From Candidatus Fokinia solitaria (lineage in GTDB: Bacteria; Pseudomonadota; Alphaproteobacteria; Rickettsiales; Midichloriaceae), in the NCBI RefSeq assembly GCF_003072485.1, contig NZ_CP025989.1, forward strand, positions 720,001-752,000: 32,000 bases of DNA. Reading direction: 5' to 3'. Below, in pieces: positions 1-27,685 of this stretch. Under the pieces are notes generated by a model. That model ran no database searches, was not told where the DNA came from, and was given only the letters and a program-made list of their open reading frames with translations. Made by a program: the position numbers and the translations under genes. The first letter of the stretch is position 1; each line of letters opens with the position of its first letter.

Positions 1-3000
1 GCTCAGATGCTGCTTTTTCTAATGAACTTTTTGTTTGGTCTTTTTGGATCGACTGCGCTGTAATCATGCTTTGTTTTAATCCAATCAGTACTTGCAACTT
101 CGGATCTTGGAAAAAAATACTGCCTTCTACACTATAACCAGCTTCCATTACTCTGATCATATCATCGACATCTACCATCACTTTATTCACTTTTTGCTCA
201 TATTCTTTCGAAGTAGATTGAAACTTCTTTGCTAGCACCCTACTCTGCTGCGAAAGAGATGATACTTCTGGTTCTGTTCCTGTCTCTGAATTTGGTATTT
301 TCAACTGCGAACCTCCTTTTCGCGCTGAGCTTTGCGAAGTTTGCACTATCTTGCGCTGCATTCTATCATGAAAATCTTTTCTAGCATTACGTTCTTCAGC
401 GAGTTCAGATATATTCTTCGCTTTCTTGAAAGCATCATATAATTGTTTTTGCTCCGCGCTAAAAGCATTGTCATTCTCGATCATAAGAGAATTTAGCTCA
501 GATATTTTCTGAGTAAGTGCGATTTGATTTTTGTCTAGTTCTATAACATCTTTATTCATTAGATTAATTTTTTCCTGATATTCTTTCAATATCTCTTGAT
601 CTGTCTCATGCATTCTCTTGTATTCCTTTTGCGTTTTCTTCATCACAGTATACGTCTGCGTCTCGCTCTGATATCGCTCACTTACTTCTCGTTTTTTTAT
701 GAGAGATTTGTCCAGCACCTTCATTACTGCGAATTGCCGTATTTCTGGTGACGTTGCTGCTGGCTGTATACTTCCTTCTAATATTTTTTTATTGTTCTCT
801 AATCGCTGCACATAAGCATCCTGCAGAGGCAGCAGTTTTTGGAGCTTGTCTGATATGATTTTCTTTTTATACGCTTCAGTATAAAGATTTACGCATTCAT
901 CTGTAATATCTGGGACGCCATGTTTCATCATGTTTATATTATCCGTGCCTATTACTGCTCTCTCCTCCTCCAATATTGCGCCTCGTTCGTCATACATAAG
1001 CTCGAGCTTTTGTTCTGATACAACTATAACATCCTGCACTACCTTTAGCTTCTCGAGAGTCGAATCATGTATTTCCTTTGCCGCATCTACAACGGTTTTT
1101 TCAGTAATCTTCATGATTCCTAATTTCTTCTGACATGCTAGAATAAATGCACGTAACGCAGAATCGTACTCTTGCATTAATACTGCTTCCATCGTCTCGT
1201 CTATTGTATCTTGAGACTGAAACCTTCTAATTTTCACTCTCGATTGATCCAAATCGCTCAAAGCTTTCTGAGTATCTGCATCAGATATAACGGGATTATT
1301 TTTTTGAATTTCATCTACTATGTCGCTAAAATTTGAATCACTAACTGGCTTTAATATTTCTAGCTTTTTTGTATTATCACTTATTTCGTTCGTTATTTCC
1401 GATCGCTTCTTCTTTAGATGCTGCCATCTCTCGTCTTGCTCTAGACTACGAAAAGGACGTTCGTCTAATTCTTTATATTCCACATTCATCGTCTTCAGCG
1501 ACTGCTCATCAGCGTCAACTTTGCGCTGTAAAACTAGTAATTCACTCAAGTTCTGTAACTTTTTATAATAGCCACTACTTGCGGCATCACTTGCATCCTC
1601 AGCATCTAATATCTTTTTCTTCTGGTCAAGAGTATACTGTAACAACTCTTCTTCGTCCATTTTTTTCCCTTTCTCATCCGATACTAGGTCTATTCTCTTG
1701 TCTATTTTTTTTTGCTCTTCTAGATAAAACATGCGAGCAGCTCGCACTTTTCCTATCTCCTCGGATAGCTCATTACCCCCGAACCTTTCATTTATGGACG
1801 TAAGCTCATGCTGTGCTATATCTTGCAGGTTACTCGTCTTTATCGTAGAAAGAGATGATTCTTCCATCTGTATAAGTTGAGTATGTAACGAAGATGCTTC
1901 TTTCTTTATCTGTAGCAGCATTGCACCATTTGACAACGTAACTTCGCCGCCCTCTTTTTTCTCAGCATCTTCTACTGTTTTTAGCTCATTCTCAGCACTT
2001 TGCTTTAACTTTTGCATTGCATGATATAATTTCTCTCTCTTTTCATACTGATTACTGAAGTCAAAGTATTTCATCGCATCTTTCACTGCTAAAATATTAT
2101 CATCTAGAAATGCTATTATTGCTTTTAACTGCTTTTTTAATACACTGCTACGACATACAATCCCCTTACTAAGCCAGTCATCCATTTTCATATCTTTGAA
2201 AGTAGGAATAATATCATCAGAACGTGCTCCTACTAACTCCATTAAATCTGCGTTTAAAACTGCGATTTCATCGCCAACTGCTTTCTTTTCAAGCTCAATC
2301 TGCCTCTCATCTACTTGCAGTAATTGAGCTACATCTGCAGCACGCTGACTTTGATACGCATCATCTAGCTTTTGAATATCTGTTTTAAATTGCTCGTTTA
2401 GAAAATCTTCGCCTCTCTTCAAGCGCTTTGCTAGCTTATTATCTTGCCTCCATAAATCTTGCCTTTGGCGCTCCAATTGCATCAACTTCTCTTCGCCTTC
2501 CTGTATATCAGTGACAAATCTCAACTCTTTCATTATCGCTTTCTGCAGAAACTTTTGCTGTAACAGATCCTTATCAGCGTTTGCTTTATTATCTTTTAAG
2601 TCTTTCAGATCTGACATCATTCGAAGTATAGTCTCCATTCCTCCTCTTCCAGCAATATCTACTCCGTTTAGATCTGCATTATCGAAAAACTCGCCTATCT
2701 CTGAGGCCTGAGCATCACGCTGCACTATAGCTTTATCCGGAGATAATTCTAGCGATACGGTAATTTCTAATTTTCTCCATGCATTTTCCATCTCACGATG
2801 TCGGAAAACTTCTCTTATAGCTTTTTCACTTGAGAAGTTTTCATTTTTTTCATGATATTCTGCGTTCTCTTCATCGAAAATTTTCGATATTGCATGATGT
2901 AGATTTAATATTTTCTCTTTTTCAGACTCGATACGCTCGCGCGCCTCAACTCTAGAATCGCGCTCGTGCTGCCGCTGCATCGCTATATCAGTTTTTACCA

Positions 3001-6000
3001 TTTCAGCTTTAAAAAGATCTACCGCATACGCTACTAATGGTGGCATCTTTGCTACAAGCTTCTTTGCACTCTCATGATTGAGTAACGACAACATCTTTGC
3101 AGCATAAGATGAATACTGAGTAGTACTCCCTGGCGTTATCTTGAGATTATTAGCACTATCTAGAATCTGCACCAAGAATTCTTGAAACTGAGACAAATAT
3201 TCCTTTTGCTCAACTAATGTTTTCTTGTATAACTCTTCTTTTTCCTCTTCCTGCTTATGCTTTTCCTTTAAGTACTGTAAAGATTTGAATGCATCAGACA
3301 CTGGGATACTATCACGATAAAACTCCGTTTCTTTTAGAAATTCTTCTAATTTCTGGCGCTCTTGTTCTATTTTTACCATCCCTCTAAAAGCCTCTTTTTC
3401 ATCATCAGAAAAACGGCCCCATTTATTGAAGTTGGTTTCATGCAGAGAAGTTATCTTCTCCTTCGTTGTCTTATTCCATTCTCTCCCCTCCTCTGTTTTG
3501 TTACTCTTTTCGTAACGCAAATACTCCAAAACTAAATCTAAAATATCCCTTCCATATTGAGTCTTTCCAGCTCGCTGTAGCAACTCTACTTCATGATTCT
3601 GTTTTGCTTTCGCTGCATCAAACTCACGCTGAATGCTATTAACTGCATCCTTGTAGGATAACAATACATTATCGTATACACGTTCTGCATCACTCTTCTT
3701 TGGTAGTTTTGCTAATACTTTCTTTATATCGTCTTTTCCTTTCTTTATTAGCATCGCTTTCTCATCTTTATTTTCTAAAATAGCAATAGTCTCCTTTAAA
3801 TGCGCAACAGACTGAGCGTGCAAATCGACATCGCCGCGTACTGCTAAATCTTCTTCCGCAGCATTCCACAGTTCTAATTTACTCAAGAAGCTTTCATTTG
3901 CCTCTATATGGCTCTGTACTTGCACCAAGAATGCACTTCTCGTAGAAGTATATAATGCAACGGCTTCTCCTACTGTTGCAGGATGTTGTGCCTGCTCTAT
4001 GTTAATTTTATATTTCGCAAAAACTTGCCCCGTATTGTGATTGCTTATCGCATTAACTGCCGTTGTTAAGGAAGTACGTAGCTCTGCTTGATTCTCTGGT
4101 CGTTTTTGCCCCTCTAATGCTTGCAATAATTTCTCGTCAGCCTCAGCATTCTGTTGAATTTGTGCCAGGATATCATTTATCAATTGATCATGTAATTGAC
4201 AAGCAGCCTGCCACTCTGTTTCAGATAACTGTCTCCCTGCATCACTGATAACATCTTCATTAGGATTTTGAAATTTTTGCAGCATCGTCTCGATCTGCAC
4301 CTTCTGTGCGGTAAGAGAGCTCTTTTCTATAAGCTTAAGCAGATCTTTTAAATCTTTGTACACTATAGCAGAGTTAGACTTTTGAAGAACAAACTCACCA
4401 GAAAGTTCAGTAAGTTTTTGCTTCAACACCAAACTACGACCGATGTTTCCACGAATGTCAGACTTAAGATGCCCTATCATGTCTTGATATTCACCGATCT
4501 TTTGATCTTCCGGAGAAACTGCTCTTGGATTCAGCAAGTCTTTAAGCGCTTTAAGAGTCCTATCCTTCGCGCGTTGCATAGTGTCTCTTTCCATAGAGCA
4601 ATTTTCTAATAGCCCGGTAACTTTTGTATAATGCACACTTACTGCTTTAGTATTGGCACTTTCCACGTTTTCAGCATTAGTTGGAGCATTTAATTTCTGC
4701 GACAATCCCGAATTCGTATCTTGTTCTTTTTTAAGCGTGACAACGAGAGCATTTCTGAGGTCTTTATATGATATAGCGGCCTCTTTATACGCTGCCTCTT
4801 CAGGAGACGTATTTTCTAAAACTTGCAACTTTTCTTTCATCTTACCAACGTCAGAGAATGCACTTCGTACTTCAATTCTTTCTGCAAAAGTATCAAGCTT
4901 CTTTAAATAAAGATTTATTTCTTGACCATCATTACGTCCAGATGGCACTGGTATGGCATTCAACTCCTCCAAAAGTAGTTTATTTTTACCGCCATTATCT
5001 GCAGTCAGTTTTGTAATAAGAGCATTTTTCAATTCTACGCATAATGCTATAGCATTTGCGTACGTTACTTCATTTTTTACGCGATATAACTTCATCGCAT
5101 CGATATCGTTCTTAAAATCTTTCTGACACTTTTCCAAGATTGGAGAGACATTCGCCTCCCACTTCGAGTCTGCTACTGGATTTTCTGTCACTAGAGTAGA
5201 TAAGTCTTGCAGCACTTTCTCATCGTAAACACCATCATTTTTCTTCTCTTCAATTGTAACAAGAAGAGCCTTGATTTTAGGATCATTTTCTATCTTCAAT
5301 CTCTCTGAGAAATACACATTCATTTCCTCTCTTTCTTTCATCGCTGCTTCAGATATTTGCCATGCTTTTATATCTGCCATGAAAGACGGATGTGCGTTTA
5401 TGCCTCTCTCTAATGAAGCCATCAAACTCGAATAATAATTTTTCTCTTTCTCTAAGTCGCTCTGCTGCTTCTTCTTTTCGTCTATCTGGTCTTGAATCCC
5501 GTCTATAGCTAAAGAAATTGCATTTCTTTCGTCCTGAAGTACAGGTATTTTCAACCTATCATATGTGTTAGCTAACTCGTACTCTTTATCTGCTAGCTTC
5601 ACTTCCTGCAGCTTTTTATCATTCTCCAAAGCAATAATTTCCATAGATACTTCATTTAGTTCCTCATTTATCTTCTCAAGCTTTTTCTCCTTTAATAGAG
5701 TGTGCTTACCTACTATTTTCTTTAAATATGTATCATAATATTCTGGAAGTATAAAATCTGTTCGATGTTGTATTCTAATATCTTGCAATTCCTCCAACAT
5801 TCCTGCCGCTTTATCTAACGAATTCTCCTTCTTATCAGAATAAGTAAGCAGCATTGATAAATTGTGTAGCATCTTCCATATAGTCAAATTATGCTCTTCC
5901 ACACCTATTACCATGCGTTGTGTATCTGATGGGTTTATTTGCGGTAATGCAGCAGCGCATACTCCTTCCGTGCTTCTTCTTAATATTGCTAACGCAGTAT

Positions 6001-9000
6001 AAGATTCGCTATAAGGTATAACTCTCAATACTATGATTCCTTGCGGCACTAATGCACTCGATAGCTTTGCATATGCTGAATCTTTTTGCTCCTGCGTCAG
6101 CATCACATCAGTAACATTTTCAGATTTCCATTGTTCTATCTCTCTTAACCTTTCTTGTATTTCAAAATCTTTCTCTGGACTTGCTATAGTATCATGTCCG
6201 CGATCTGAATTTCGAAGTCTTACCAACTCCGACCATAATGAATCAATGTTATGCTCGTATTCTTTTAATTGCTGCAATACATGTTCTCTATTATATTGCA
6301 TTACCTGTAATAGCATAGCTTTCTCTTGTTTCTGTGCTCCGTCCGCTAATAAAGCAAGATCATGATTTGCTACTTTAATAGCTTCGTCTAATTCATTCAG
6401 CTCGTCACGGCAATTCATACGCCCTTTTCTTGCAGCGTATAAAGACTGCCTCACTTGATCTATCTCGAATTGTATTGTTTTATCCGCTCCTGTGACAATA
6501 AGTCCGTACCTTACTTCAAAGTTATGCAATTGGTCATACGCTTCTCTAATAGTATTGCTGAGTTCAAATCGCTGATGTTTTAACGATTGTAACGCCAATG
6601 ACGTTTCATCAATCTGCCTTTGCAGAAGTACTTTCGTTATCCCATCTACCGGCTGTGATTTTGATAATGTTAATAATGTTTCTTCATGCGCCATTATACT
6701 TTGCCCTATCACTGTAAAATCCTCAATTTTCTTCGATATCATATCCTCTAATCTTGTCTTTTGTTCAGGTTCCGATATTGATTGATCTCTCGATGTTCTT
6801 TCTTCAAACGTGCTAAGCCATTTTTCATTCTGACTTACAGGCGTCGTCTCTAAAAGATTAAAACACTGTGTTTCCGCATCTCTATGTGCATATTTTTTAG
6901 CTTCCAAAGTATACTTTTCATTCATGTATAGTGGATGCTCTATCATATCGTCATCACATAATCCCTCAATCTCTTCCAACTTTTTCGAAACGTATAATAC
7001 CGGGCTATCGCTCAATTTTACAGGAGGCACTAGCTGTTGCTGCATATTTTGAACAACTCCTCCTTGCGCAAAAGCTTGGCTGAGATCCTGCACTTGTACT
7101 ACTGTTTCTTGCTCTACAACTATTCGTTTTGCTGCAATCTCAAGATCGATTTCAGCTATCTTAGCAGCTATCGAGTTCTCTTGCTCACATCTACTTATTT
7201 CCAATTTATTTTGCGCAAGCTTCTGCGCTTGCAGATCTTTTATTGCATCTTGTGCGGACTTGATATTATGCTCTACACCTATGATTGCGTCTTTTGTCTT
7301 CTCAATCGCAGCATCATACATATGTAATGTCTCTATAGAATCATTTACAAACACGCGTTGCGCATCGATGAGTTCTTGATCTTTCTTTACTGCTCTCTCC
7401 AACTCTTGTAATTTCTTTACTTGTGCATTTTTATCTTTTAAGGCCTGTAAACGAAGCTGTTCGATCTCTTTCAACTCTCCTTGATGCTTTTGCAATGTCG
7501 TTCGAGCATTTTGAAGATTAGTCGCCAAAGCAGCATCTCCTGCCACTTGTCGTTCTAAATGACGTAATGTATCAATCTTCTTCTTTGCTGCATCTCCTTC
7601 TGTTATCTGTCTTCTTCTAATCTGCTGCAGGAGAGCTATATCAGGCAATGCCTTCAAATCAACATCTCCTCTAATCACTCCTTCTATTATTCCTTGGTAA
7701 ATTGTCTCATAAGAATTATTCTCTGCACTAGCACGCGCAAGATTATCTTTCATGCCCTTTACTTCTACTATCATCTGCTTCAATACTTCCACTTCTTCCT
7801 TTTTCATTTCTAATTTCTGTAATTCGCCTTGCATTCCTACAACACCATCTTCAACTGATAGCAATACTTCGTTAACCTTCGTTTTTTTGGCTTGTAACTT
7901 ATTCAAGGCTTCTTCTCTCTTCTGAATTTCAATACGAGTGTTTTCTGCATCGTTCTCCGGCAACATTTCCGCTTCTAACGCCGCCTCTATATCAAGATAA
8001 AGACTTATCTTGATATTCGCTTGCTCTAAATTACTTCCTGTTAATGTTTTTCTTTGCGCTCTTGTATTTATAAGTTCTTGATGTACATTTGCTTTGAGTG
8101 TTTCAATCTCTTCTCTATTACGAAATTTTTCAAAATAAGGCATTGGCTGCCCATTTAAATACATCTCTTTTTTTTTGTAAAAGTCAAGCTTTTGCTTAGC
8201 GCCATAATTGCGTAATGACTCACTATACCAGTCTTCCGCAATTTGACATATACTTTCAGCAATAGATACTTCATGTACTGCTTTATGTATTCTTGCAACA
8301 ACGTCTATTGCTTCTTGACTACTTATAGTCTGATGCTTTTGCTCTAATGCTCTTTTTTTATCAAGTAATTGCCGTACTTTCGTATCAGGATTAGCGAAAT
8401 ATGCATCCATTGATTGGAATTGCTGTAGTACATCTGACTTTAGACCAAGAGAAATTAACTGCTGTTGATGCATATTCATCCAAGCGTCAAAACTGCCGTC
8501 TATACGATTAAACGTAACATTATCAGCAGGTAAAACATCACTTTTTTTCCATAACAAATTCTCAAGTAGTACCTCTTCTATCTGCATTGCTGATTGAAGC
8601 GCATCACGCCTAAAAGCATATGTTGTAGCACTATCTGGATTGAGAGGTATCGCTTGTTCCTCTCCAGTAGCTTCTGGCGCTATGGCTGATCTTATCAGCC
8701 CTCCTATATTGACAGAATCTGCAGCAATCTTATCAGACAGATCTGCATCATTCATTGTTGTGTATGCTTTACCATATGCATCTATTTCTTTACGAAGCTG
8801 AATTTCATTCTGTTTTACAATTTTCATTTCATCTTCTGTACTTTTCAAGCGAGCGCGCATTTGGCTTATATTCGCATCTATACCACTCACATCAACACCA
8901 TCTTGAATACGAAATGCCCGTACAATAAGCATATTCTCTATTCTCTTCGCGTCCGCAAAAATCATATCTTGCAATACTGCACCATACGATTGATGATCTT

Positions 9001-12000
9001 TTAGCTTTAATTTCGCAATTTCCACCGTAATTATCAATTTCTGCAATAGAGTATAATTTTCACCTTGTAGAGTAGGTATCAAACTGTTTGCTGAATTCTC
9101 ATTTAATACGATGTCTTTTTCAAGGAGTGCTAGCTTCTCTATTGAATCATTCCTCAATTGGTGTTTTTGTATAATATCAGACTGTATTTTTTCTAGAAGA
9201 AATCTTCTGTAATTTTCATCGCTGGAATGCCAAAGATAGTACATTCCGTGAAGCTCACTTTCTTTGAAATTACTTTGAATAACATGCTCGACTCCATCTC
9301 TTGCGGTTGCATTCAAACTTTTCGCACTTCTGAGCACCTCTTTTTCAATAGATTGTGCAGTTGCTACAACTACATTTTGGTCAGTACGTGCTGTTAAAGG
9401 TAGCTGAGAGAAATATTGCCCCGCTTCTTGCAAGCGAGACAGCTCTCTATCTATCTTGCCAAAATTCACTCTCTCAGACGCCCAATTAGAGTAAGCTGTA
9501 GCTGTTCTTTGCAATTCTGCTGTAACAACAACGCAATCTTGCACAGTATGTCTTTGCGCAGGAGACATCTCGTTAAATTTATCTATCCACTGCGAAGTAC
9601 GTTGCCGAGTTTCTGCTCCTAATTTAAAGAGTTCTCTTGCATTAGCTCCTTCAGACTGTTTTTGCTCATACAATAGCGTAACTTGACCGTTTCGTTCATA
9701 ATATTCTTGTCCTTCAACTGCAACTCGCAATGTATTGTACAACTCTTTTTGACGTTGAGAATTAATTGTCGCTTCTCTTGATTGCTTCAGATAAGACGAT
9801 ATTAAGTTCTTTTGTAATTTTTCTTCTGCAATTTCAAATTCAGTCCTTGCGTAATCCAAATCTCCAGCAACTTTAGTAGCTAAAACACCTTCAAGCTCTA
9901 CTATCTTATTTTCTGATGCGACAAGCGCCTGCTCTAACCTTACAATATTACCTTCTGCAACATTGAGAGATAAGTCATTCTGCGCAGCACTGTCCTCTAA
10001 TGCCAATAACGTAGCGTCGCGTATAGAATTATCCGTTGATGTAGATTCTGCTAAGGGCTGAAGAGCAGGTACGTTGGTATAATCTTTATTAATAAACTGA
10101 TACTTGCTTACTGCAATAGTGATCTCTTTTATTCTCTCTTTTGCAAAATGTATCGTTCTGTCGTATCTTCCTATCTCTTCAATAAGTTGAAGATGTTTCT
10201 TATATAGATCGTATACTTCTCTATGCTCAGCATCAAGCACTGGATTTGATGCGCAATATTTCAGGAAATGTTCCAAAAGCAGCTGATAATTTGACAACTC
10301 TGCTACTGTCACATTGCTTTTATCCATTAGAATGGCTTCATTCATTTTCCTTTCAATATGCAGGCTGTTCTGCGCTGCTATTAAAATAGGTATTAAATCG
10401 ATTTCTTTTTGTATTGCATCCTTCATATCCTTAATATCCAACGCTATTTCTTTTTTACTATACGATCCTGTATTTTCTCTCACTGCGCTATACTCATTAT
10501 TCGCTTTTTTCAGTTTGTCCTTTATATCATCAATCTCTCTTTCAAAAGCTTTCTTCTGAAGCTCTTTTTGCTTTAAATCTCTAGCACAATCCGATGACTT
10601 TTGCGCACAATCTTGAGAATTGCAAGTAACAAGTAAATTACTTAGCTTTACATTTTCTTCTGCTATTTCTGCACTAAGCCGTAATATTTTACTTTCTAAA
10701 TCGGTTATCTTGAGATGGAAGCTTTCCTTAATATTATCTAACTCTCCTCTTCTTTTGTAAGACACTGCACCATTTTGCATTGCATTGCTTTTCTGCGAAG
10801 GTTTAATCTTTCTTCCAAGAACGGCTCCATTCTCTTTAAAGGTGACATTTTTCTTTTGAAGATTACGATTTTTTTGTGGCTTCTCACCTAATACGCAAAA
10901 TTCTCCATAGCAAGGCGTTGTAGTAGAATCGAGATTTTTGAGATCAAATTTTTGCTTGAACTGTAGCGTATCAGGCGCTTGTTCTAATATATGCGATTGG
11001 GAATCATTGCTCTCTGAAACAACGGTAGCAGGCCCTTGCTTCAATTGTAACCGACTCATTACATTTTGATGAGCTGCATTTGATTGCGAAGCTGCTCCTG
11101 CTGCTTGCTTCTGTGGCTCTACAGTTGTTTCTTCACGCTGATATAGCGGCACATGAAGTAATTTCGCTACAGAAGAGAGATCTTTGTAATTAGATAATTC
11201 CTTTTCCAATTGCCGTATCAAATTCGCTTCCTGCACCATCCTCGCTATATAAGAGTTACCACGCTGCTTTAATGATTGAAGCTCGGATTCTAGTGCGCGT
11301 ACTTTCTGTTCACGTTCTGTAACAGTATTTATACTCTTCTGTAAGCGTGCTTTTTCTTTCAGTAATCTTGCAATTTGCCCTATAGTTTCTGGAGGATGTG
11401 CTTCTCCTTCTTGCAATGAAGCAAGTGTTCCTTGTAAACGACGTATCTCACTATCTAATGCCATTATTCTATTGGCATTAGATTGTGCTTCTGCAGCAAT
11501 AGCTTGAGCGCCTCCTAACTCCTGTATTTTCGCGACGATTTTTTTCTCACTCTCTTTTTCATGAATCATTTTTGAACGTAAATCCGCTATCTTTGTTTGC
11601 GCTCTAAGTAATCGATTTTTCGTTTTTATGAAATTGAACCTCTCTTGTTCTTCGCCTTCTTCAAGATTTTGCAATGTACTACCAAAGTTATTCACACGAT
11701 CTTCTAAAAGCTGTATATCATTGTAATACGGCGTAAGCATAGATTGAATATTGTAATGAGTCGCTAATGCATCTACCGCATCCAATCGCATTCTCATCTC
11801 ATCTATAGATCTACGATATTCACCTATATCTCTCACATGCACATCACGCGCTTCACGTAGCATCCTTGCTCTGCTTTCAATATTACTAAGATTTATATCG
11901 TCTAAAGGCGTACCATTTTCTAAACCAAGATAATAATCTTTAAGTGTATCTTCTAATTCTTGCTGATCTTGTAAAACGTCCTGTAATTGCGCTTCTGCAG

Positions 12001-14356
12001 CTTTTAATTTTTCGGATAAATTATCGATCTTTCTTTCCACGTTCTGCAACGTTTTCTCATTTCCTTGCTGCGCTTCTGTTTTCTGACCGTTCTTTCCTGC
12101 ATTATGATACATTATTGCCTTCTGCTGTATTGTTTTACCTCCACCTGCAAAATTCACGTTTATCGGTACAGATTGAGGTTTAGAATTCTCTTCAATAAAA
12201 CGTTTTAATTCTTCTAATAGACTTTCTTCTGTCGATGGCGAACTATCATCTCCTAGAAAACGCTTCATTTTTTTAGGAAGATGCTTTTTTATGATTTCTA
12301 TTACTGTATTGCGGTTTTGATAAATAGCCCAAACAGCGCCTATACCGAACTTAATATATGTATCATACTTCGATAAAAATGTTTCATCGTCCTCTTTTTC
12401 TATTGCTATATCTGGAATCACGATCTGCTCATCACCATTTTCCTTCTCAGGTACATTCTCTTGCATCTCTTCTTCCGTAGGTACATCTCCTGACTCTTCT
12501 CCTTCCGTAGACTCGCTCTCTTCCTCAGATGGTACAGTATCATCCAAGTTTCCTTTATTATCATTCTCTCCTTCCTTAGGTACACTTCCTTCCTTGGGTA
12601 CAACATTCTTTACTACTTCTAGCAATGTATCATCCTTCTTATTTTCCACTGTATCTACTTCATTATCTTGTATCTCAATCTCCTCACTTACTTCTTCAAC
12701 ATTCTCTTCATCATACTTCACTTCTTCAACATTCTCTCCATCAGGTACATTCTCTTGCATCTCTCCTTCCTTAGGTACATTCTCTTGCATCTCTTCTTCC
12801 GTAGGTACATCTCCTGACTCTTCTCCTTCCGTAGACTCGCTCTCTTCCTCAGATGGTACAGTATCATCCAAGTTTCCTTTATTATCATTCTCTCCTTCCT
12901 TAGGTACACTTCCTTCCTTGGGTACAACATTCTTTACTACTTCTAGCAATGTATCATCCTTCTTATTTTCCACTGTATCTACTTCATTATCTTGTATCTC
13001 AATCTCCTCACTTACTTCTTCAACATTCTCTTCATCATACTTCACTTCTTCAACATTCTCTCCATCAGGTACATTCTCTTGCATCTCTCCTTCCTTAGGT
13101 ACATTCTCTTGCATCTCTTCTTCCGTAGGTACATCTCCTGACTCTTCTCCTTCCGTAGACTCGCTCTCTTCCTCAGATGGTACATCATTACTTAAGTTCT
13201 CTTCTTCCTCAGGCAGTATATCACTTAAGTGCTCCTTATTATTATCATCACCATTTTCCTTCTCAGGTACATTCTCTTGCTTCTCTCCTCCCGTAGGTAC
13301 ATCTCCTGGTTCTTCTCCCTCCGTAGAGTTACTCTCTCCATTAAGTGGCACATCATTACTTAAGTTCTCTTCTTCCTCAGGCAGTACATTACTGTTTCCT
13401 TTATCATCATTCTCCTCCTTCTTTTCGAAGATATCTTTCACTACCAACACACTTTCGCTTTCTTCCTCGCTTACCTCTTCTTCCATAAATGCATCTTCTT
13501 GTTTCTTCTCTATTAGCGCAACACTCGCCGCTACTTCTGATGATGTACCCTTCTCTTCCTCTATAGAAATATCTTTTTGCTCTTTCTCCTCCTCTATAGG
13601 TACAATACTCGCTACCATTGCTTCCTGCCGTTTTAGAAACATTCTATGTTCAATATTCAGAAGCAGCATTTTAATTCTTTGAAACAGCAATATGCTTCCT
13701 TCTGATATGTCATTCTTTATTCTTCGTGTGAAAGTCTCATCACTTTCAAAGTTCTCATTTTTACCGTTCTTCTCTGCATTATTTTCGAAAGAGACAACAT
13801 TATCTTCGAAAGAGACGGTATCATCGTCATCTTCTTCTGTAATCGATGATTCTTGAAAATCTACAATTTCCTCTTGCTCTTCAGTCGCTTCTTTCATAGA
13901 AACTGCTTCCTTATTATCATCTAAGAGAATTAGATTAACAGCTGAAGCAACATTAGGTCCGTTTTGCACCATCATCATCTGTCGTACTTTTTGTAGCAGA
14001 CTAACTTTTCTTTCCTGCATTATACGATTTTTATACGACTCAGTAGGACGTACACGAAGCGCATACTCATATCGCAAACGATGTTGCTCAAGTTCTCTTA
14101 TATATGGATGCAATAGTGCAAATTCCACGATAAGCGCTTCCTTATTTTCGGCACTATTAACAACACTGATGTCAGCTTTTTTTGAAGCATCAACATTAAC
14201 CTTCGGATCGTAAGCACTTCTATGAAGATCATAACACACTCCACATTCATACCATAAACCCGCAATCAGAACATCTCCCCATCCAATATCGAATATTTTT
14301 ACCCTGCGAAAAGCTCTGTCTTCTACCTCTAGATGCCAAAATAATGAATTAAGCAT
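1..14356 (-). CDS. Giant hypothetical protein, >4,785 aa, 3' end beyond left window edge. Acidic tandem-repeat N-terminal region plus very long E/K/L/Q-rich (coiled-coil-like) body. Candidate secreted effector or surface protein.
   Basis: ATG at 14356-14354 (minus), preceded by an in-frame TAA at 14365-14363. I translated the minus strand by eye in the frame whose codons occupy plus coordinates 3k+2..3k+4 and found no stop down to position 2. About 20 lines across 480-14280 were spot-checked for in-frame tta/cta/tca and none was found. N-terminus reads MLNSLFWHLEVEDRAFRRVKIFDIGWGDVLIAGLWYECGVCYDLH. The last codons in the window read ...LKQSMITAQSIQKDQTKSSLEKAASE. The plus strand is strongly T/C-rich, as expected for the antisense of GAA/AAA/GAG-rich coding sequence. 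The ORF track lists no minus-strand fragments in 1-12400, which fits one edge-truncated ORF rather than a decayed pseudogene. Confidence 0.88.
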   Translation of the reverse strand, partial: MLNSLFWHLEVEDRAFRRVKIFDIGWGDVLIAGLWYECGVCYDLHRSAYDPKVNVDASKKADISVVNSAENKEALIVEFALLHPYIRELEQHRLRYEYALRVRPTESYKNRIMQERKVSLLQKVRQMMMVQNGPNVASAVNLILLDDNKEAVSMKEATEEQEEIVDFQESSITEEDDDDTVSFEDNVVSFENNAEKNGKNENFESDETFTRRIKNDISEGSILLFQRIKMLLLNIEHRMFLKRQEAMVASIVPIEEEKEQKDISIEEEKGTSSEVAASVALIEKKQEDAFMEEEVSEEESESVLVVKDIFEKKEENDDKGNSNVLPEEEENLSNDVPLNGESNSTEGEEPGDVPTGGEKQENVPEKENGDDNNKEHLSDILPEEEENLSNDVPSEEESESTEGEESGDVPTEEEMQENVPKEGEMQENVPDGENVEEVKYDEENVEEVSEEIEIQDNEVDTVENKKDDTLLEVVKNVVPKEGSVPKEGENDNKGNLDDTVPSEEESESTEGEESGDVPTEEEMQENVPKEGEMQENVPDGENVEEVKYDEENVEEVSEEIEIQDNEVDTVENKKDDTLLEVVKNVVPKEGSVPKEGENDNKGNLDDTVPSEEESESTEGEESGDVPTEEEMQENVPEKENGDEQIVIPDIAIEKEDDETFLSKYDTYIKFGIGAVWAIYQNRNTVIEIIKKHLPKKMKRFLGDDSSPSTEESLLEELKRFIEENSKPQSVPINVNFAGGGKTIQQKAIMYHNAGKNGQKTEAQQGNEKTLQNVERKIDNLSEKLKAAEAQLQDVLQDQQELEDTLKDYYLGLENGTPLDDINLSNIESRARMLREARDVHVRDIGEYRRSIDEMRMRLDAVDALATHYNIQSMLTPYYNDIQLLEDRVNNFGSTLQNLEEGEEQERFNFIKTKNRLLRAQTKIADLRSKMIHEKESEKKIVAKIQELGGAQAIAAEAQSNANRIMALDSEIRRLQGTLASLQEGEAHPPETIGQIARLLKEKARLQKSINTVTEREQKVRALESELQSLKQRGNSYIARMVQEANLIRQLEKELSNYKDLSSVAKLLHVPLYQREETTVEPQKQAAGAASQSNAAHQNVMSRLQLKQGPATVVSESNDSQSHILEQAPDTLQFKQKFDLKNLDSTTTPCYGEFCVLGEKPQKNRNLQKKNVTFKENGAVLGRKIKPSQKSNAMQNGAVSYKRRGELDNIKESFHLKITDLESKILRLSAEIAEENVKLSNLLVTCNSQDCAQKSSDCARDLKQKELQKKAFEREIDDIKDKLKKANNEYSAVRENTGSYSKKEIALDIKDMKDAIQKEIDLIPILIAAQNSLHIERKMNEAILMDKSNVTVAELSNYQLLLEHFLKYCASNPVLDAEHREVYDLYKKHLQLIEEIGRYDRTIHFAKERIKEITIAVSKYQFINKDYTNVPALQPLAESTSTDNSIRDATLLALEDSAAQNDLSLNVAEGNIVRLEQALVASENKIVELEGVLATKVAGDLDYARTEFEIAEEKLQKNLISSYLKQSREATINSQRQKELYNTLRVAVEGQEYYERNGQVTLLYEQKQSEGANARELFKLGAETRQRTSQWIDKFNEMSPAQRHTVQDCVVVTAELQRTATAYSNWASERVNFGKIDRELSRLQEAGQYFSQLPLTARTDQNVVVATAQSIEKEVLRSAKSLNATARDGVEHVIQSNFKESELHGMYYLWHSSDENYRRFLLEKIQSDIIQKHQLRNDSIEKLALLEKDIVLNENSANSLIPTLQGENYTLLQKLIITVEIAKLKLKDHQSYGAVLQDMIFADAKRIENMLIVRAFRIQDGVDVSGIDANISQMRARLKSTEDEMKIVKQNEIQLRKEIDAYGKAYTTMNDADLSDKIAADSVNIGGLIRSAIAPEATGEEQAIPLNPDSATTYAFRRDALQSAMQIEEVLLENLLWKKSDVLPADNVTFNRIDGSFDAWMNMHQQQLISLGLKSDVLQQFQSMDAYFANPDTKVRQLLDKKRALEQKHQTISSQEAIDVVARIHKAVHEVSIAESICQIAEDWYSESLRNYGAKQKLDFYKKKEMYLNGQPMPYFEKFRNREEIETLKANVHQELINTRAQRKTLTGSNLEQANIKISLYLDIEAALEAEMLPENDAENTRIEIQKREEALNKLQAKKTKVNEVLLSVEDGVVGMQGELQKLEMKKEEVEVLKQMIVEVKGMKDNLARASAENNSYETIYQGIIEGVIRGDVDLKALPDIALLQQIRRRQITEGDAAKKKIDTLRHLERQVAGDAALATNLQNARTTLQKHQGELKEIEQLRLQALKDKNAQVKKLQELERAVKKDQELIDAQRVFVNDSIETLHMYDAAIEKTKDAIIGVEHNIKSAQDAIKDLQAQKLAQNKLEISRCEQENSIAAKIAEIDLEIAAKRIVVEQETVVQVQDLSQAFAQGGVVQNMQQQLVPPVKLSDSPVLYVSKKLEEIEGLCDDDMIEHPLYMNEKYTLEAKKYAHRDAETQCFNLLETTPVSQNEKWLSTFEERTSRDQSISEPEQKTRLEDMISKKIEDFTVIGQSIMAHEETLLTLSKSQPVDGITKVLLQRQIDETSLALQSLKHQRFELSNTIREAYDQLHNFEVRYGLIVTGADKTIQFEIDQVRQSLYAARKGRMNCRDELNELDEAIKVANHDLALLADGAQKQEKAMLLQVMQYNREHVLQQLKEYEHNIDSLWSELVRLRNSDRGHDTIASPEKDFEIQERLREIEQWKSENVTDVMLTQEQKDSAYAKLSSALVPQGIIVLRVIPYSESYTALAILRRSTEGVCAAALPQINPSDTQRMVIGVEEHNLTIWKMLHNLSMLLTYSDKKENSLDKAAGMLEELQDIRIQHRTDFILPEYYDTYLKKIVGKHTLLKEKKLEKINEELNEVSMEIIALENDKKLQEVKLADKEYELANTYDRLKIPVLQDERNAISLAIDGIQDQIDEKKKQQSDLEKEKNYYSSLMASLERGINAHPSFMADIKAWQISEAAMKEREEMNVYFSERLKIENDPKIKALLVTIEEKKNDGVYDEKVLQDLSTLVTENPVADSKWEANVSPILEKCQKDFKNDIDAMKLYRVKNEVTYANAIALCVELKNALITKLTADNGGKNKLLLEELNAIPVPSGRNDGQEINLYLKKLDTFAERIEVRSAFSDVGKMKEKLQVLENTSPEEAAYKEAAISYKDLRNALVVTLKKEQDTNSGLSQKLNAPTNAENVESANTKAVSVHYTKVTGLLENCSMERDTMQRAKDRTLKALKDLLNPRAVSPEDQKIGEYQDMIGHLKSDIRGNIGRSLVLKQKLTELSGEFVLQKSNSAIVYKDLKDLLKLIEKSSLTAQKVQIETMLQKFQNPNEDVISDAGRQLSETEWQAACQLHDQLINDILAQIQQNAEADEKLLQALEGQKRPENQAELRTSLTTAVNAISNHNTGQVFAKYKINIEQAQHPATVGEAVALYTSTRSAFLVQVQSHIEANESFLSKLELWNAAEEDLAVRGDVDLHAQSVAHLKETIAILENKDEKAMLIKKGKDDIKKVLAKLPKKSDAERVYDNVLLSYKDAVNSIQREFDAAKAKQNHEVELLQRAGKTQYGRDILDLVLEYLRYEKSNKTEEGREWNKTTKEKITSLHETNFNKWGRFSDDEKEAFRGMVKIEQERQKLEEFLKETEFYRDSIPVSDAFKSLQYLKEKHKQEEEKEELYKKTLVEQKEYLSQFQEFLVQILDSANNLKITPGSTTQYSSYAAKMLSLLNHESAKKLVAKMPPLVAYAVDLFKAEMVKTDIAMQRQHERDSRVEARERIESEKEKILNLHHAISKIFDEENAEYHEKNENFSSEKAIREVFRHREMENAWRKLEITVSLELSPDKAIVQRDAQASEIGEFFDNADLNGVDIAGRGGMETILRMMSDLKDLKDNKANADKDLLQQKFLQKAIMKELRFVTDIQEGEEKLMQLERQRQDLWRQDNKLAKRLKRGEDFLNEQFKTDIQKLDDAYQSQRAADVAQLLQVDERQIELEKKAVGDEIAVLNADLMELVGARSDDIIPTFKDMKMDDWLSKGIVCRSSVLKKQLKAIIAFLDDNILAVKDAMKYFDFSNQYEKREKLYHAMQKLKQSAENELKTVEDAEKKEGGEVTLSNGAMLLQIKKEASSLHTQLIQMEESSLSTIKTSNLQDIAQHELTSINERFGGNELSEEIGKVRAARMFYLEEQKKIDKRIDLVSDEKGKKMDEEELLQYTLDQKKKILDAEDASDAASSGYYKKLQNLSELLVLQRKVDADEQSLKTMNVEYKELDERPFRSLEQDERWQHLKKKRSEITNEISDNTKKLEILKPVSDSNFSDIVDEIQKNNPVISDADTQKALSDLDQSRVKIRRFQSQDTIDETMEAVLMQEYDSALRAFILACQKKLGIMKITEKTVVDAAKEIHDSTLEKLKVVQDVIVVSEQKLELMYDERGAILEEERAVIGTDNINMMKHGVPDITDECVNLYTEAYKKKIISDKLQKLLPLQDAYVQRLENNKKILEGSIQPAATSPEIRQFAVMKVLDKSLIKKREVSERYQSETQTYTVMKKTQKEYKRMHETDQEILKEYQEKINLMNKDVIELDKNQIALTQKISELNSLMIENDNAFSAEQKQLYDAFKKAKNISELAEERNARKDFHDRMQRKIVQTSQSSARKGGSQLKIPNSETGTEPEVSSLSQQSRVLAKKFQSTSKEYEQKVNKVMVDVDDMIRVMEAGYSVEGSIFFQDPKLQVLIGLKQSMITAQSIQKDQTKSSLEKAASE
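12449..13184 (-). repeat. Perfect tandem repeat, 324-bp unit (108 aa), 2.27 copies, in frame inside the giant ORF
   Basis: The string aggtacattctcttgcatctcttcttccgtaggtacatctcc starts at 12449, 12773 and 13097 (spacing exactly 324). Copies 1 and 2 look identical base for base by eye. Copy 3 matches through 13184 and then diverges. The off-frame track ORFs 12418..12606 and 12718..12930 begin 324 bp apart with identical peptides. The unit encodes ...DDTVPSEEESESTEGEESGDVPTEEEMQENVPKEGEMQENVPDGENVEEVKYDEENVEEVSEEIEIQDNEVDTVENKKDDTLLEVVKNVVPKEGSVPKEGENDNKGNL. Confidence 0.95.
13178..13400 (-). repeat. Diverged older repeat copies (about 168-bp spacing) related to part of the 324-bp unit
   Basis: acatcattacttaagttctcttcttcctcaggcagta occurs at about 13182 and about 13350. 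The encoded segments, LPEEEENLSNDVP(S/LNG)E.S.STEGEE(S/P)GDVPT..E.QENVP, are recognisably homologous to the SEEESESTEGEESGDVPTEEEMQENVP part of the perfect unit. Confidence 0.8.
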
Positions 14357-17926: not shown

Positions 17927-18589
17927 GTGATATACTATCAAGTAATGCATATCATAACTACTCATAGAAAAATATATACAATGCAATTACAAAAGGAAAA
18001 ATTTAATAAGTTTGAAATACCAACTTTATACAACATAATATCACTGCTGCCAAAATCTACAAATGTACTTGCTTTGTTGAGAGATCTATGTACACCACCT
18101 GAATTGAGAATTTTAAGAGAAAGATTGACAATAGCTTTATATCTTCAGCATAAACCTAATTTCTCATATAAGATGATCAAAAATCTCACAGGAAGCAGCG
18201 TGACAACTATAATGAAAGTAAATCACGTACTACAAAATAAAATTTGTAATGGATATAAAACGATACTACCTCAGTGTAATATCTATACTTCGCTTGAAGA
18301 GGCGCTTTTAAAGACAGGCACTGCGGAAAGATGTAAAGATCTCATATCGGATCTGTGTACCACTTATGAAATAAATATATTCGAAACAAGATTAGTCGTG
18401 GCGTATTTATTATCAAAAGGCTCTAGTAATAAGGAAATAATAAATTTTATCTCAGTCAGTACAGCGACATTAACTAGAATAAGAAGATTTTTAAATTATG
18501 AAAATAATAGAGGATATACGGCGGCATTTCATCTATTTGACAAGTACAACTGCGATAACAATACAGCTATGTTAAAATTTAAAATATAA
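17927..18589 (+). CDS. Tandem-duplicated YerC/YecD (TrpR-like) helix-turn-helix protein
   Basis: 220-aa ORF. Two homologous halves are visible: LLRDLCTPPELRILRERLTIALYLQHKPNFSYKMIKNLTGSSVTTIMKVNHVLQNKICNGYKTIL and LISDLCTTYEINIFETRLVVAYLLSKGSSNKEIINFISVSTATLTRIRRFLNYENNRGYTAAF. The second closely resembles the YerC/TrpR-family core as I remember it (D.CT..E......R..VA..L..G.....I......S.ATI.R..R.LNYG..GY). The start may be the internal Met at 17981. Confidence 0.75.
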   Translation: MIYYQVMHIITTHRKIYTMQLQKEKFNKFEIPTLYNIISLLPKSTNVLALLRDLCTPPELRILRERLTIALYLQHKPNFSYKMIKNLTGSSVTTIMKVNHVLQNKICNGYKTILPQCNIYTSLEEALLKTGTAERCKDLISDLCTTYEINIFETRLVVAYLLSKGSSNKEIINFISVSTATLTRIRRFLNYENNRGYTAAFHLFDKYNCDNNTAMLKFKI

Positions 18590-25219: not shown

Positions 25220-26380
25220 CTATTGAACTAAGAAAGAAATTATGTGATTGAGAAGTCTGAATTTATCTCGCGGCACTCCGATGCAGCACATCTCTTCATC
25301 ATACCAAAGCATATTATCATTGCATAGACTTTGTACTTTTGAGAAATCTAAATTTTGCATCATCACATCGTCAATTTTGATGCCTGCTTCTAATCTTAAC
25401 CCCATAAGCAACTTTTCCACAAAAACTGCCTTTTCATCAAGAAACTCCACAGTACTAATAGCGCTATCATTCTGCTTTATTTTTAAAAGCCATTTTTCAT
25501 AATGATATTCATCAACTATAGCAACAGAATGACAGGTATTGTGAGAATTCGTTAATAACTCATATGATTGCGATCTGAGTCTACTATGCGCGCCTGGACC
25601 TATGCCAATATATTCTTCATATTTCCAATATGATAAATTATGCGCACTTTCATAAGTTTTTTTCGCGTAATTCGAAATCTCATATCTACATAAGCCGTAA
25701 CTATCTAAGATTTCACCCGTAGCATCATATAGCTGCAATGCTATTTCATCATCAATTTCTCGCAATAAGCCTCGCTTTTTTAAATTACCGAACTTCGTCT
25801 TTGGCTCTATCGTAAGCTGATAAACGGAAATATGAGGAGGATTATATCTCATTACCACCTCAAGCTCCTGCTTCCACTCTTCAACAGTCTGACCATCTGT
25901 ACCGGATATCAGATCAAATGAGTAGTTATTAAAAATAGAAGATACAGCATTCATTGAATGAATTGCATTCTCAGCAGAATGATCTCGACCTAGAAACTGC
26001 AATCTCTCTTGTTGAACACTCTGTATACCGACAGAGACTCGATTTACTCCACAATTCTTTAAATCTAATAATTTCTGAGATGTTATATCACGTGGATTCA
26101 TTTCTATCGTAACTTCAAATGGCATTTGCTGAAAGCTACTCACAAAGCGCACTATATCTTCTATTACCGTAATAGGCGCTAGCGAAGGCGTACCGCCTCC
26201 GATGAACAAAGTCGATACTCCATGCTTTTGCAACAGCGGCTTGTAAAATGATAAGCATTTTATATACGCATCACTCCACTCTCGAGAGTCTGCTACTTTT
26301 TTGACAACGTACGTATTGAAATCGCAGTACGGGCATTTCTTGCCGCAAAACGGCCAGTGTATATATATGGAGAGAGACAG
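25220..26380 (-). CDS. hemW: Radical SAM heme chaperone HemW / oxygen-independent coproporphyrinogen-III oxidase-like protein (start codon uncertain)
   Basis: The track ORF starts at TTG 26233 (337 aa) and contains GGGTPS and a HemN_C-like C-terminus. The same frame stays open upstream to the stop at 26431-26429. That upstream stretch encodes LSLSIYIHWPFCGKKCPYCDFN, the essential CxxxCxxC radical-SAM cluster motif. The real start must therefore lie upstream of 26233. I placed it provisionally at CTG 26380-26378. Confidence 0.85.
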   Translation of the reverse strand: MSLSIYIHWPFCGKKCPYCDFNTYVVKKVADSREWSDAYIKCLSFYKPLLQKHGVSTLFIGGGTPSLAPITVIEDIVRFVSSFQQMPFEVTIEMNPRDITSQKLLDLKNCGVNRVSVGIQSVQQERLQFLGRDHSAENAIHSMNAVSSIFNNYSFDLISGTDGQTVEEWKQELEVVMRYNPPHISVYQLTIEPKTKFGNLKKRGLLREIDDEIALQLYDATGEILDSYGLCRYEISNYAKKTYESAHNLSYWKYEEYIGIGPGAHSRLRSQSYELLTNSHNTCHSVAIVDEYHYEKWLLKIKQNDSAISTVEFLDEKAVFVEKLLMGLRLEAGIKIDDVMMQNLDFSKVQSLCNDNMLWYDEEMCCIGVPRDKFRLLNHIISFLVQ

Positions 26381-26385
26381 CGAAG

Positions 26386-26676
26386 CTACGCGTAAGTTTG
26401 TAAATTTTTCTTTACGTAATGAGTGATGTTACTCACCATTCTAGAAGCAGTATTTAGTTTCAGCACGCCTTTCGATTTCGCTTTCATGATTTCGGACTCT
26501 ACGGTACGTAACAGAACAAAGACTTCGTCCTTCGGCGAATCATTACGCACTACGTCAGTGACCTTCTTCCGCAAACTTGAAATGAAAGTCTTAACCCTAC
26601 TTTTAACCGCTCTATTTCTCTTATATCGTTCCAGTGAGCGCGCACGCGCTTTAACTGCAGAAATATGTTGTGCCAT
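26386..26676 (-). CDS. rpsT: 30S ribosomal protein S20
   Basis: MAQHISAVKARARSLERYKRNRAVKSRVKTFISSLRKKV has the characteristic basic S20 N-terminus. The track ORF extends to 26712, but Met13 (ATG at 26676) matches the canonical S20 start. Confidence 0.9.
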   Translation of the reverse strand: MAQHISAVKARARSLERYKRNRAVKSRVKTFISSLRKKVTDVVRNDSPKDEVFVLLRTVESEIMKAKSKGVLKLNTASRMVSNITHYVKKNLQTYA

Positions 26677-26754: not shown

Positions 26755-27378
26755 TTATCCCTTCGTAGCTTTTTCATCTCCAGGTAATACTACATCCTTC
26801 CATGGATTTTCTGAATCAAAATTCCTATATGCCTGATCTAATACTATAGGTTTTTTCACAACTGTGCCTGTATTAGGTTCGAAACATGCATCATGATATC
26901 CACTCAAAGGAAAATCTTTTCTTAGAGGATGATGAGTAAAGTCGCTCTCATTTAATATTCTCTTAAGATTAGGATGCGATAGAAACTTAATACCAAACAT
27001 GTCATACACTTCTCTTTCGTACCAATCCGATGATCGGTATATTTGATACACTGAAGGTATCGCCTCATCTTGAGAAATAGGCAAGTGCACTCTTAAACGC
27101 CAATTATTAGTAACGCTTAGAAGATGATATACGACTTCAAATCTCTTCTCTCTGTCCGGATAATCCACAGCACAGACATCTAAGAGCATTTCAAATGATA
27201 AAATCTCGTCATTCTTTAAAAAATTCAAAAATTGCACAATGTGAGTGCATGAATGTAGTGTCGCATAACTCTCTTTCAAAGGAGAATTGTGCTGAAATTC
27301 GCATAAAGAAAGAACATCATCTTGTACTATTGCTTTATACTTCACAAGCAGTGAGTATAATTCGCTTTGACGAGTCAT
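26755..27378 (-). CDS. nuoC: NADH-quinone oxidoreductase subunit C
   Basis: 207-aa ORF. Recognisable complex I 30-kDa subunit motifs are DYPDREKRFEVVYHLLS, WYEREVYDMFGIKFLSHPNLKRIL and HPLRKDFPLSGY. Confidence 0.9.
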   Translation of the reverse strand: MTRQSELYSLLVKYKAIVQDDVLSLCEFQHNSPLKESYATLHSCTHIVQFLNFLKNDEILSFEMLLDVCAVDYPDREKRFEVVYHLLSVTNNWRLRVHLPISQDEAIPSVYQIYRSSDWYEREVYDMFGIKFLSHPNLKRILNESDFTHHPLRKDFPLSGYHDACFEPNTGTVVKKPIVLDQAYRNFDSENPWKDVVLPGDEKATKG

Positions 27379-27389
27379 AAAAGTAATAT

Positions 27390-27587
27390 TAAGACGTGGG
27401 GAATTCTGTTGCTCGGCTCCCCAAAACCGCCGGTTCAGAGAAAACTGTTATGCAAAAGCAGTTTGTAGTCTCTCTTCTCCATGCATTACGTTGTCGTTTG
27501 CATTTATTTTTACGATCAATTTTACAGCTGCATCACGCTGAGTAAAAGCTGCACCCTTTGAATATATGTCGAATCTATTTCACCCCC
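27390..27587 (-). ncRNA. ssrA: tmRNA (ssrA) coding piece with tag reading frame ANDNVMHGEERLQTAFA* (3' boundary approximate)
   Basis: The minus strand from 27587 reads GGGGGUGAAAUAGAUUCGACAUAUAUUC..., containing the conserved tmRNA 5' GAUUCGAC element. Next comes ...CGUAAAAAUAAAU followed by GCA AAC GAC AAC GUA AUG CAU GGA GAA GAG AGA CUA CAA ACU GCU UUU GCA UAA. The resume codon is at 27501-27499 and the stop at 27450-27448. A GGGGA...UCCCC hairpin follows at about 27395-27420. Confidence 0.8.
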
Positions 27588-27591
27588 TCTT

Positions 27592-27685
27592 TGGTGGAGA
27601 TGTCGAGTTCTGCCCTCGAGTCCATTATATTTATTACGGAGAGTATTTATTACCATAGACTGACTTGCGTCGATCGCTTTTATGG
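27592..27685 (-). ncRNA. ssrA: tmRNA (ssrA) acceptor piece of a circularly permuted two-piece tmRNA (5' boundary approximate)
   Basis: The minus strand reads ...GGAC-TCGAG-GGCAGAA-CTCGA-CATCTCC-A-CCA, ending at 27592. This is a T-arm-like hairpin directly abutting a 7-nt acceptor 3' strand, a discriminator A and an encoded CCA. The strand pairs with GGGGGUG four nt downstream, giving G1-C72, G2-C71 and the Ala-identity G3:U70. Confidence 0.75.

Follow-up and report, generated by a model that had tools for sequence, protein, structure and literature searches.

How did a 324-bp unit come to stand in perfect tandem copies in the genome of 'Candidatus Fokinia solitaria', and what kind of gene carries it? 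The organism is a Rickettsiales endosymbiont of Paramecium that lives naked in the ciliate cytoplasm (PMC4701390, PMC5905368). Its genome, one closed circle of 837,348 bp assembled with Unicycler from PacBio Sequel and Illumina reads, was the smallest Rickettsiales genome at its publication in 2018 (PMC5905368), and has lost the Krebs cycle, LPS and flagella. Our analysis covers a window of 32,000 nucleotides of this genome, to which all coordinates refer. The array is genuine: a recent tandem duplication of a familiar type and an ordinary product of unequal recombination. The giant gene in which it lies, an orphan and previously undescribed, is more notable than the repeat itself. We favour, with a probability of roughly 0.6, a very recent in-frame tandem duplication in a native orphan giant gene whose acidic region would serve as a flexible spacer or brush.

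The carrier gene and its relatives

The minus strand holds a frame that is open for 4,787 codons in the window (chance probability about 1e-169). Public annotation has this frame as one protein, P0001, of 5,660 aa and 646 kDa, and its 17-kb ORF takes up about 2% of the genome.

1..14356, minus strand: the orphan giant gene as far as it lies in the window, comprising 4,785 codons from its start; the ATG is at 14356 and the gene continues beyond the window
14201..14356, minus strand: first 52 codons, 54% identical to Fokcrypt_00002 (61 aa); for no other part was a relative detected

The RSCU correlation of the giant gene with neighbouring genes is 0.92, whereas the wrong frames give 0.44 and 0.71, and its GC3 is 0.32 (neighbouring genes, 0.30). 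The open frame and the native codon usage together identify a native protein-coding gene on the minus strand, and the peptides quoted in the earlier note are therefore a reverse-complement reading. A plus-strand frame of 452 codons is also open across the array, which might place the repeat in a plus-strand gene (ORF 12594-13682, 362 aa) or in non-coding satellite DNA; however, this frame is the stop-poor antisense of GAA/GAG-rich sequence, and next to the annotated minus-strand frame, with its 17 kb of native codon usage, we give either assignment practically no credence.

An exhaustive phmmer search with the N-terminal 1,198 aa, repeats included, returned only P0001 itself and a 61-aa Fokinia ORF, and word-based searches with the remainder of the protein gave no relative among the matches listed. 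No Pfam domain (E <= 0.1), NCBIfam match or PDB match was found for the giant protein, and its 90% cluster has one member, from one contig. The 61-aa ORF, Fokcrypt_00002 of Ca. Fokinia cryptica, occupies the same genomic position as the start of the giant gene, and across syntenic DNA the divergence between the two Fokinia species is 22%. In the Ca. F. cryptica record, the ORF orthologous to the giant gene is cut off by a break after about 150 nt, and the record also has a perfect 111-nt copy, inverted, of a gene nearby. The giant gene is not mentioned in the F. solitaria genome paper (PMC5905368).

Layout and origin of the array

The features of the array and of its older neighbour, listed in the order of transcription, are as follows.

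13226..13393, minus strand: older diverged unit S1, a member of the repeat family of the array, 168 bp (56 aa); adjoins the array
12449..13184, minus strand: perfect tandem array C1-I1-C2-I2-C3, 736 bp, period 324, 2.27 copies, no mismatches; aa 391-636
13097..13184, minus strand: core C1, 88 bp; VPSEEESESTEGEESGDVPTEEEMQENVP
12861..13096, minus strand: insert I1, 236 bp, with nested 30-bp and 18-bp micro-repeats inside; KEGEMQENVPDGENVEEVKYDEENVEEVSEEIEIQDNEVDTVENKKDDTLLEVVKNVVPKEGSVPKEGENDNKGNLDDT
12773..12860, minus strand: core C2, same sequence as C1 and C3
12537..12772, minus strand: insert I2, same sequence as I1
12449..12536, minus strand: core C3, same sequence as C1 and C2

The segment 12449-12860 is identical to 12773-13184 base for base, a 412-nt perfect run at offset 324 that was established by direct comparison and with which the repeat search agrees; mismatches at this offset begin exactly at 13185. 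Direct comparison of the two full copies (12449-12772 and 12773-13096) likewise gives 0 mismatches, in agreement with the exact repeat, ending at 13184, that had been reported earlier. A perfect match of 412 nt cannot be attributed to chance. TRF places the array at 12441-13184 with a period of 324 bp, 2.3 copies, 99% matches and a score of 1474. The earlier note counted 2.27 copies of one unit, and the 736 bp at period 324 bear out this figure; however, the array is better described by a C-I-C-I-C layout, in which the core C has 88 bp and the insert I 236 bp. This layout was read from the alignment and a motif map.

The frame is kept across the units, as had been claimed, since 324 = 3 x 108, and both 108-aa units are identical, each with 37% Glu+Asp and a net charge of -32, which bears out the acidic character ascribed to the array. 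The nested micro-repeats are present too, with the correction that the MQENVP micro-repeat has a period of 30 bp in TRF and not 33. Nor is this a frame-shifting or promoter-altering repeat of the phase-variable contingency type, as the periods of 324, 168, 30 and 18 bp are all divisible by 3 and the repeats are contained in the CDS. The position near the N-terminus of a very long gene is also as first described (7-11% into it), and internal repeats of the giant protein are confined to aa 280-700, the body being without them. Divergence of the neighbouring repeats was likewise seen, the array of the 168-bp unit having 86% matches in TRF and several substitutions in the aligned core, and C3 is followed by EKENGDEQ, which is similar to the tail of this older unit.

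Perfect copies beside diverged older ones make very recent duplication or homogenisation, as proposed in the earlier note, the natural inference, and 0 differences in 412 sites correspond to less than about 0.7% divergence (own calculation). From the sequence we infer a mechanism in which the ancestor would have been C-I-C, that is, two 88-bp direct repeats around a 236-bp insert, and one unequal recombination or replication slippage between the two C copies would have given C-I-C-I-C. Gene conversion may have held the copies identical afterwards, and ongoing gene conversion could account for the perfect identity as an alternative to a single recent event. The step from C-I-C to C-I-C-I-C is the standard outcome of unequal recombination or slippage in VNTRs, and the array resembles an intragenic minisatellite or VNTR in its short direct repeats and its head-to-tail, in-frame units, which are of high identity, a multiple of 3 in length and inside a real ORF; however, the VNTR class is defined by copy-number variation in populations, and the array is known from one genome.

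The assembly might instead have collapsed or over-expanded the true copy number, or the number might vary within the symbiont population. Perfect 324-bp units exceed Illumina k-mers and would close into a loop in the graph of a short-read assembly, and the locus may be hard to assemble in view of the break and the inverted copy in the Ca. F. cryptica record. However, typical PacBio Sequel reads are expected to span the 736-bp array many times (PMC5905368), and the array has clean, in-frame boundaries and diverged flanks, so that an artefact appears improbable. With one F. solitaria genome on record, the array sequence was not found in other strains or in metagenomes (the metagenome scans were empty). 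For a symbiont that cannot be cultured, the array would be of practical use as a strain marker of a size amenable to PCR.

The acidic region and the predicted helical body

The duplicated segment sits in a polyanionic region between the short conserved N-terminus and the predicted helical body of the protein.

12437..13936, minus strand: acidic region, aa 141-640, pI 4.05, GRAVY -1.24 (also given as -1.43), about 37% Glu/Asp

The AF2 model is without secondary structure at aa 251-657 and over most of aa 145-207, with helices at aa 208-250, and the 500-aa polyanionic region is probably intrinsically disordered. The body is alpha-helical in AF2, with helices of 15-50 residues and loops between them. 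The pLDDT is low everywhere, with means of 36 and, for the body, 44, which makes both the disorder and the helix calls weak. The body furthermore has heptad-like periodicity, the power at period 3.5 being 0.326 compared with 0.199 +/- 0.014 in shuffles (~9 sd above), and the approximately 4,900 residues beyond the acidic region are predicted to be an alpha-helical or coiled-coil rod. Foldseek gave no match with E < 0.9 for the model. Crescentin, FilP, Scy and the coiled-coil effectors of intracellular bacteria have a long helical region with heptad-like periodicity of the sort predicted for the giant protein; however, the giant protein has no homology to any of them, and its low-confidence helices are broken by loops rather than forming a continuous rod.

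Within the favoured reading, the polyanionic region would most likely be a spacer or brush that is flexible and carries negative charge. The length of such a spacer would be weakly constrained, and 108-aa blocks could therefore come and go without harm; we infer this tolerance of length change for the acidic region, whereas a role of the giant protein at the host interface is speculative.

Likeness to known systems and possible roles

Among the closest parallels are TRP32/VLPT, TRP47, TRP120 and A. marginale MSP1a of Ehrlichia and Anaplasma, which belong to the same order as Fokinia. These proteins share with the giant protein in-frame acidic tandem repeats (pI about 4) and the lack of a Sec signal, and their copy number is strain-variable. 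However, the giant protein showed no sequence homology to them (phmmer on the N-terminal 1,198 aa, word-based searches beyond), its unit is much longer (108 aa), and it is about 10-30 times larger, is predicted to be mostly helical rod and has no demonstrable T1SS signal. Of the RTX GGxGxD nonapeptide repeats, sought as GG.G.D, there is no instance in the 5,660 aa, and no T1SS genes lie in the window. The C-terminal 50 aa contain 38% LDAVTSIF and 14% KHPMWC, where TRP32 has 38% LDAVTSIF and the background of the giant protein is 49%. Neither a signal peptide nor a TM-like segment was found (maximum 19-aa hydropathy 1.42), and for a T4SS signal of the VirB/D4 type the C-terminal R-x7-R-x-R-x-R motif is absent and the last 20 aa have a net charge of -3.

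Acidic tandem-repeat effectors such as the Ehrlichia TRPs are a known Rickettsiales theme (PMC3417381, PMC8112483), and by this analogy selection may have multiplied a 108-aa module that binds a host protein, cations or nucleic acid, the copies raising avidity. The space that the gene fills in the smallest Rickettsiales genome implies selection for its retention. We consider such a module unlikely, however: Pfam and NCBIfam searches, and phmmer on the N-terminal 1,198 aa, linked the giant protein to no TRP and to no other family, the RTX motif is missing, T1SS-like composition is not clearly enriched at the C-terminus, and with 0 substitutions between units no signal of selection can be read.

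The earlier note saw in the array a strain-variable antigenic determinant that might be probed with host serum. According to references within PMC3417381, variable-copy acidic repeats are immunodominant in vertebrate-infecting relatives, e.g., VLPT/TRP32 of E. chaffeensis. This idea is ill-suited to Fokinia, whose host is a ciliate, Paramecium, without antibody-based immunity (PMC4701390, PMC5905368), so that the role of an immunodominant antigen does not apply; furthermore, no further strains carry the sequence to show variability. As stated the reading is inapplicable, and we consider it very improbable.

That an orphan gene of this size has stayed intact while the genome shrank is a sign that its role is important and specific to the lineage; the host interface is a plausible place for it. 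It is conceivable, if quite improbable, that the giant protein is exported with the rod outward and its acidic repeats as a polyanionic brush around F. solitaria. If so, there would be an export route without a recognisable signal, and the brush would fend off ribosomes, possibly the autophagy machinery as well, and be tuned as 108-aa units are gained or lost. The symbiont would then encode a coat of a kind so far undescribed.

The bacterial giants described so far are for the most part surface adhesins, with recognisable repeat domains and signal peptides, or NRPS/PKS enzymes. The Fokinia protein, in contrast to most of them, has no recognisable domain or signal peptide and has repeats only at aa 280-700, and the hallmarks of giant surface adhesins (signal peptide or anchor; arrays of Ig, cadherin or other domains) were not found in it. 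It nevertheless resembles the bacterial giants of >5,000 aa in being a single ORF of >5,000 codons that fills about 2% of a symbiont's small genome, and those giants are likewise lineage-restricted (PMC11573180; bioRxiv 10.1101/2023.11.21.568195; A. kunkeei Giant1-5, PMC12863079).

Structure and probable origin of the perfect array

The tandem array described in the earlier note is real, and its coordinates, period, copy number and composition all hold; its coding strand, however, is the minus strand. Tandem Repeats Finder (TRF) reports an array at 12441–13184 with a period of 324 bp, 2.3 copies, 99% matches and a score of 1474, and base-by-base comparison of 12449–12772 with 12773–13096 gives no mismatch. 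The perfect run at offset 324 extends over 412 nt (12449–12860 is identical to 12773–13184), and the first differences appear exactly at 13185. Each 108-aa unit is 37% Glu+Asp and carries a net charge of −32. Alignment of the repeat cores together with a motif map resolves the array into the layout C-I-C-I-C, and no other family of direct repeats of at least 40 nt, and no long inverted repeat, is present elsewhere in the 32-kb window.

Features of the array and its carrier gene
1–14356, minus strand: first part of the gene for the giant protein P0001
12449–13184, minus strand: perfect array, encoding aa 391–636 of P0001
Core C, 88 bp: encodes VPSEEESESTEGEESGDVPTEEEMQENVP
Insert I, 236 bp: made of 30-bp and 18-bp micro-repeats

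The micro-repeats of I encode the pairs MQENVPKEGE/MQENVPDGE, ENVEEVKYDE/ENVEEVSEE and VPKEGS/VPKEGE; for the MQENVP repeat TRF gives a period of 30 bp, not the 33 bp proposed earlier. The claim that neighbouring repeats have diverged is borne out by an older member of the repeat family, 168 bp (56 aa) in length, which adjoins the array 5' in the gene, carries several substitutions and forms a TRF array with 86% matches. The sequence EKENGDEQ, 3' of the last core, is similar to the tail of this older unit. Internal repeats of P0001 are found only within aa 280–700. A further in-frame micro-repeat of the giant gene (21 bp, 1.9 copies, VSFEDNV/VSFENN) lies at 13777–13816 on the minus strand.

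An ancestor with the layout C-I-C would have been converted to C-I-C-I-C by one unequal crossover or slippage between its two 88-bp C copies, and we infer that the present layout is exactly the product expected from one such event. The absence of differences at 412 aligned sites bounds divergence between the copies at less than about 0.7% (calculated 95% bound); the two Fokinia species differ by 22% in syntenic DNA. The perfect identity of the units points, as in the earlier view, to a very recent event or to homogenisation that still goes on. Features of this kind are well known, and the array adds one more example.

Most simply, the repeat region would be a flexible, polyanionic spacer. Its 88-bp cores would recombine to add or delete 108-aa blocks and leave the fold undisturbed. 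It is possible instead that selection multiplied binding modules, as in the Ehrlichia TRP effectors, a reading for which the present analysis offers no support. All the repeat periods are divisible by three, which excludes phase variation as a mechanism. The earlier interpretation is supported in part: the array is recent, in frame, acidic and N-terminal, as had been proposed; its interpretation as an antigenic determinant, and the serum test suggested for it, are unsuited to a ciliate host. Copy-number variation of the array, for which one genome is on record, is a reasonable conjecture.

Coding status of the giant gene

The open frame carrying the array runs on the minus strand from 14362 to beyond the start of the window and comprises at least 4,787 codons. 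It is matched by P0001, a protein of 5,660 aa (646 kDa, pI 5.0) whose start codon is the ATG at 14356. Given the base composition, a stop-free run of 4,785 codons has a chance probability of about 1e-169. The relative synonymous codon usage (RSCU) of the gene correlates at 0.92 with that of ten neighbouring genes, where the wrong frames reach 0.44 and 0.71, and its GC3 of 0.32 is close to the 0.30 of the neighbours. The giant gene is native and coding. Its acquisition from the host by horizontal transfer is rejected on this native codon usage and on the finding of no eukaryotic match in a phmmer search with the N-terminal 1,198 aa. A plus-strand ORF overlapping the array (12594–13682, 362 aa, within a 452-codon open frame) was also considered and is not a gene; it is open because it is the stop-poor antisense of a GAA/GAG-rich coding strand.

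'Ca. Fokinia solitaria' is a member of the Midichloriaceae (Rickettsiales) and an endosymbiont of Paramecium with a closed genome of 837,348 bp, sequenced with PacBio Sequel and Illumina (PMC5905368). The 17-kb giant gene takes up about 2% of this 837-kb genome. The text of the genome paper (PMC5905368) does not mention it, and no account of a giant gene in Fokinia turned up in a full-text search of the literature. The gene carrying the array is an undescribed orphan giant in a highly reduced genome, and as such is worth a note.

Relatives and predicted architecture of the giant protein

When 1.84 billion representative proteins were searched exhaustively by phmmer with the N-terminal 1,198 aa as query, the search returned only P0001 itself and P0002 (Fokcrypt_00002), a 61-aa ORF of 'Ca. 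Fokinia cryptica'. Word-indexed searches with aa 1–1098, 1199–3400 and 3401–5660, which are weak negatives, revealed no relative among the 8,000 candidates listed for each. No match to the giant protein was found in Pfam, NCBIfam or PDB sequence searches, no relative in a search of genome contigs, and scans of metagenomes were empty; a ComM query against the genome contigs gave at most 47% identity among the 600 matches listed, which says little about taxonomy. Within the reach of these searches, the giant protein is an orphan.

Synteny upstream of the giant gene is kept in F. cryptica (alr, gap, muramidase, miaB, comM, trpR-like, dnaX and desaturase), with 72–93% amino-acid identity, and P0002 lies exactly at the position of the giant-gene start, with 54% identity over 52 residues. 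The F. cryptica record CP110343.1 ends about 80 nt past the stop codon of the P0002 ORF and begins about 150 nt into the ORF corresponding to the giant gene. Positions 1–111 of the record (10157–10267 of L081, a locus taken from it) duplicate, in inverted orientation and at 100% identity, a stretch of its own desaturase gene 1.3 kb away (L081 8753–8863). This end of the record probably results from a fold-back or from mis-circularisation of the contig, and P0002 may therefore be a truncated start of the giant gene.

Residues 1–140 of P0001 are mildly basic (pI 8.6) and helical by prediction, and are followed by a strongly acidic region, aa 141–640 (pI 4.05, GRAVY −1.24). By calculation from the net charge of the repeat unit, 0.30 per residue, and its low hydropathy, this region falls in the disordered part of the charge-hydropathy plot. 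A single-sequence AF2 model assigns no secondary structure to aa 251–657, which is only consistent with disorder, and no proof of it, because confidence is low throughout. E, L, K, A and Q abound in the body of the protein, and the value for its hydrophobic periodicity at 3.5 residues, 0.326, exceeds the 0.199 ± 0.014 of shuffles. The AF2 model of aa 2700–3600 consists mainly of helices of 15–50 residues with one short β-hairpin (pLDDT 44), and Foldseek gave no usable match for this low-confidence single-sequence model (best E 0.92).

No recognisable export signal was found in P0001: there is no TM-like segment, RTX motif or R-x7-R-x-R-x-R motif, and LDAVTSIF residues are no more frequent in the C-terminal 50 aa than in the protein at large (criteria of PMC3417381). 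Another small in-frame micro-repeat of the gene, a C-terminal NEEVNHEEVNYEEV motif, lies at about aa 5620–5640, outside the window, in an acidic tail of pI 4.1. It is a speculation, and an improbable one in our estimate, that this 646-kDa helical protein with its 500-residue acidic brush serves as coat material of F. solitaria.

Neighbouring genes

The neighbours are ordinary housekeeping genes (fatty-acid desaturase, dnaX, comM, miaB-like, gap, alr, hemW-like, nuoC, queH and M23 peptidase), and the window also contains a permuted alphaproteobacterial tmRNA. GC and AT skew change sign at about 27,400–28,200, and gene orientation turns from all-minus to all-plus at about 28 kb, beside the tmRNA gene. 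A replication origin at this position is rejected, the skew switch coinciding with the orientation switch and DnaA boxes not being in excess; the change in skew is probably a mere coding-strand effect.

nuoC (complex I 30-kDa subunit; 26755–27378, minus strand) also lies beside the tmRNA gene, apparently alone, with neither nuoB nor nuoD as neighbour. In the HemW-like radical-SAM ORF (25220–26428, minus strand), profile matches begin only at about position 50–60. The open frame reaches upstream to 26428, so that the true start probably lies upstream of the listed TTG. The YerC/YecD TrpR-like protein (17927–18589, plus strand) is extended at its N-terminus by about 120 aa and is conserved in F. 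cryptica, with 79% identity.
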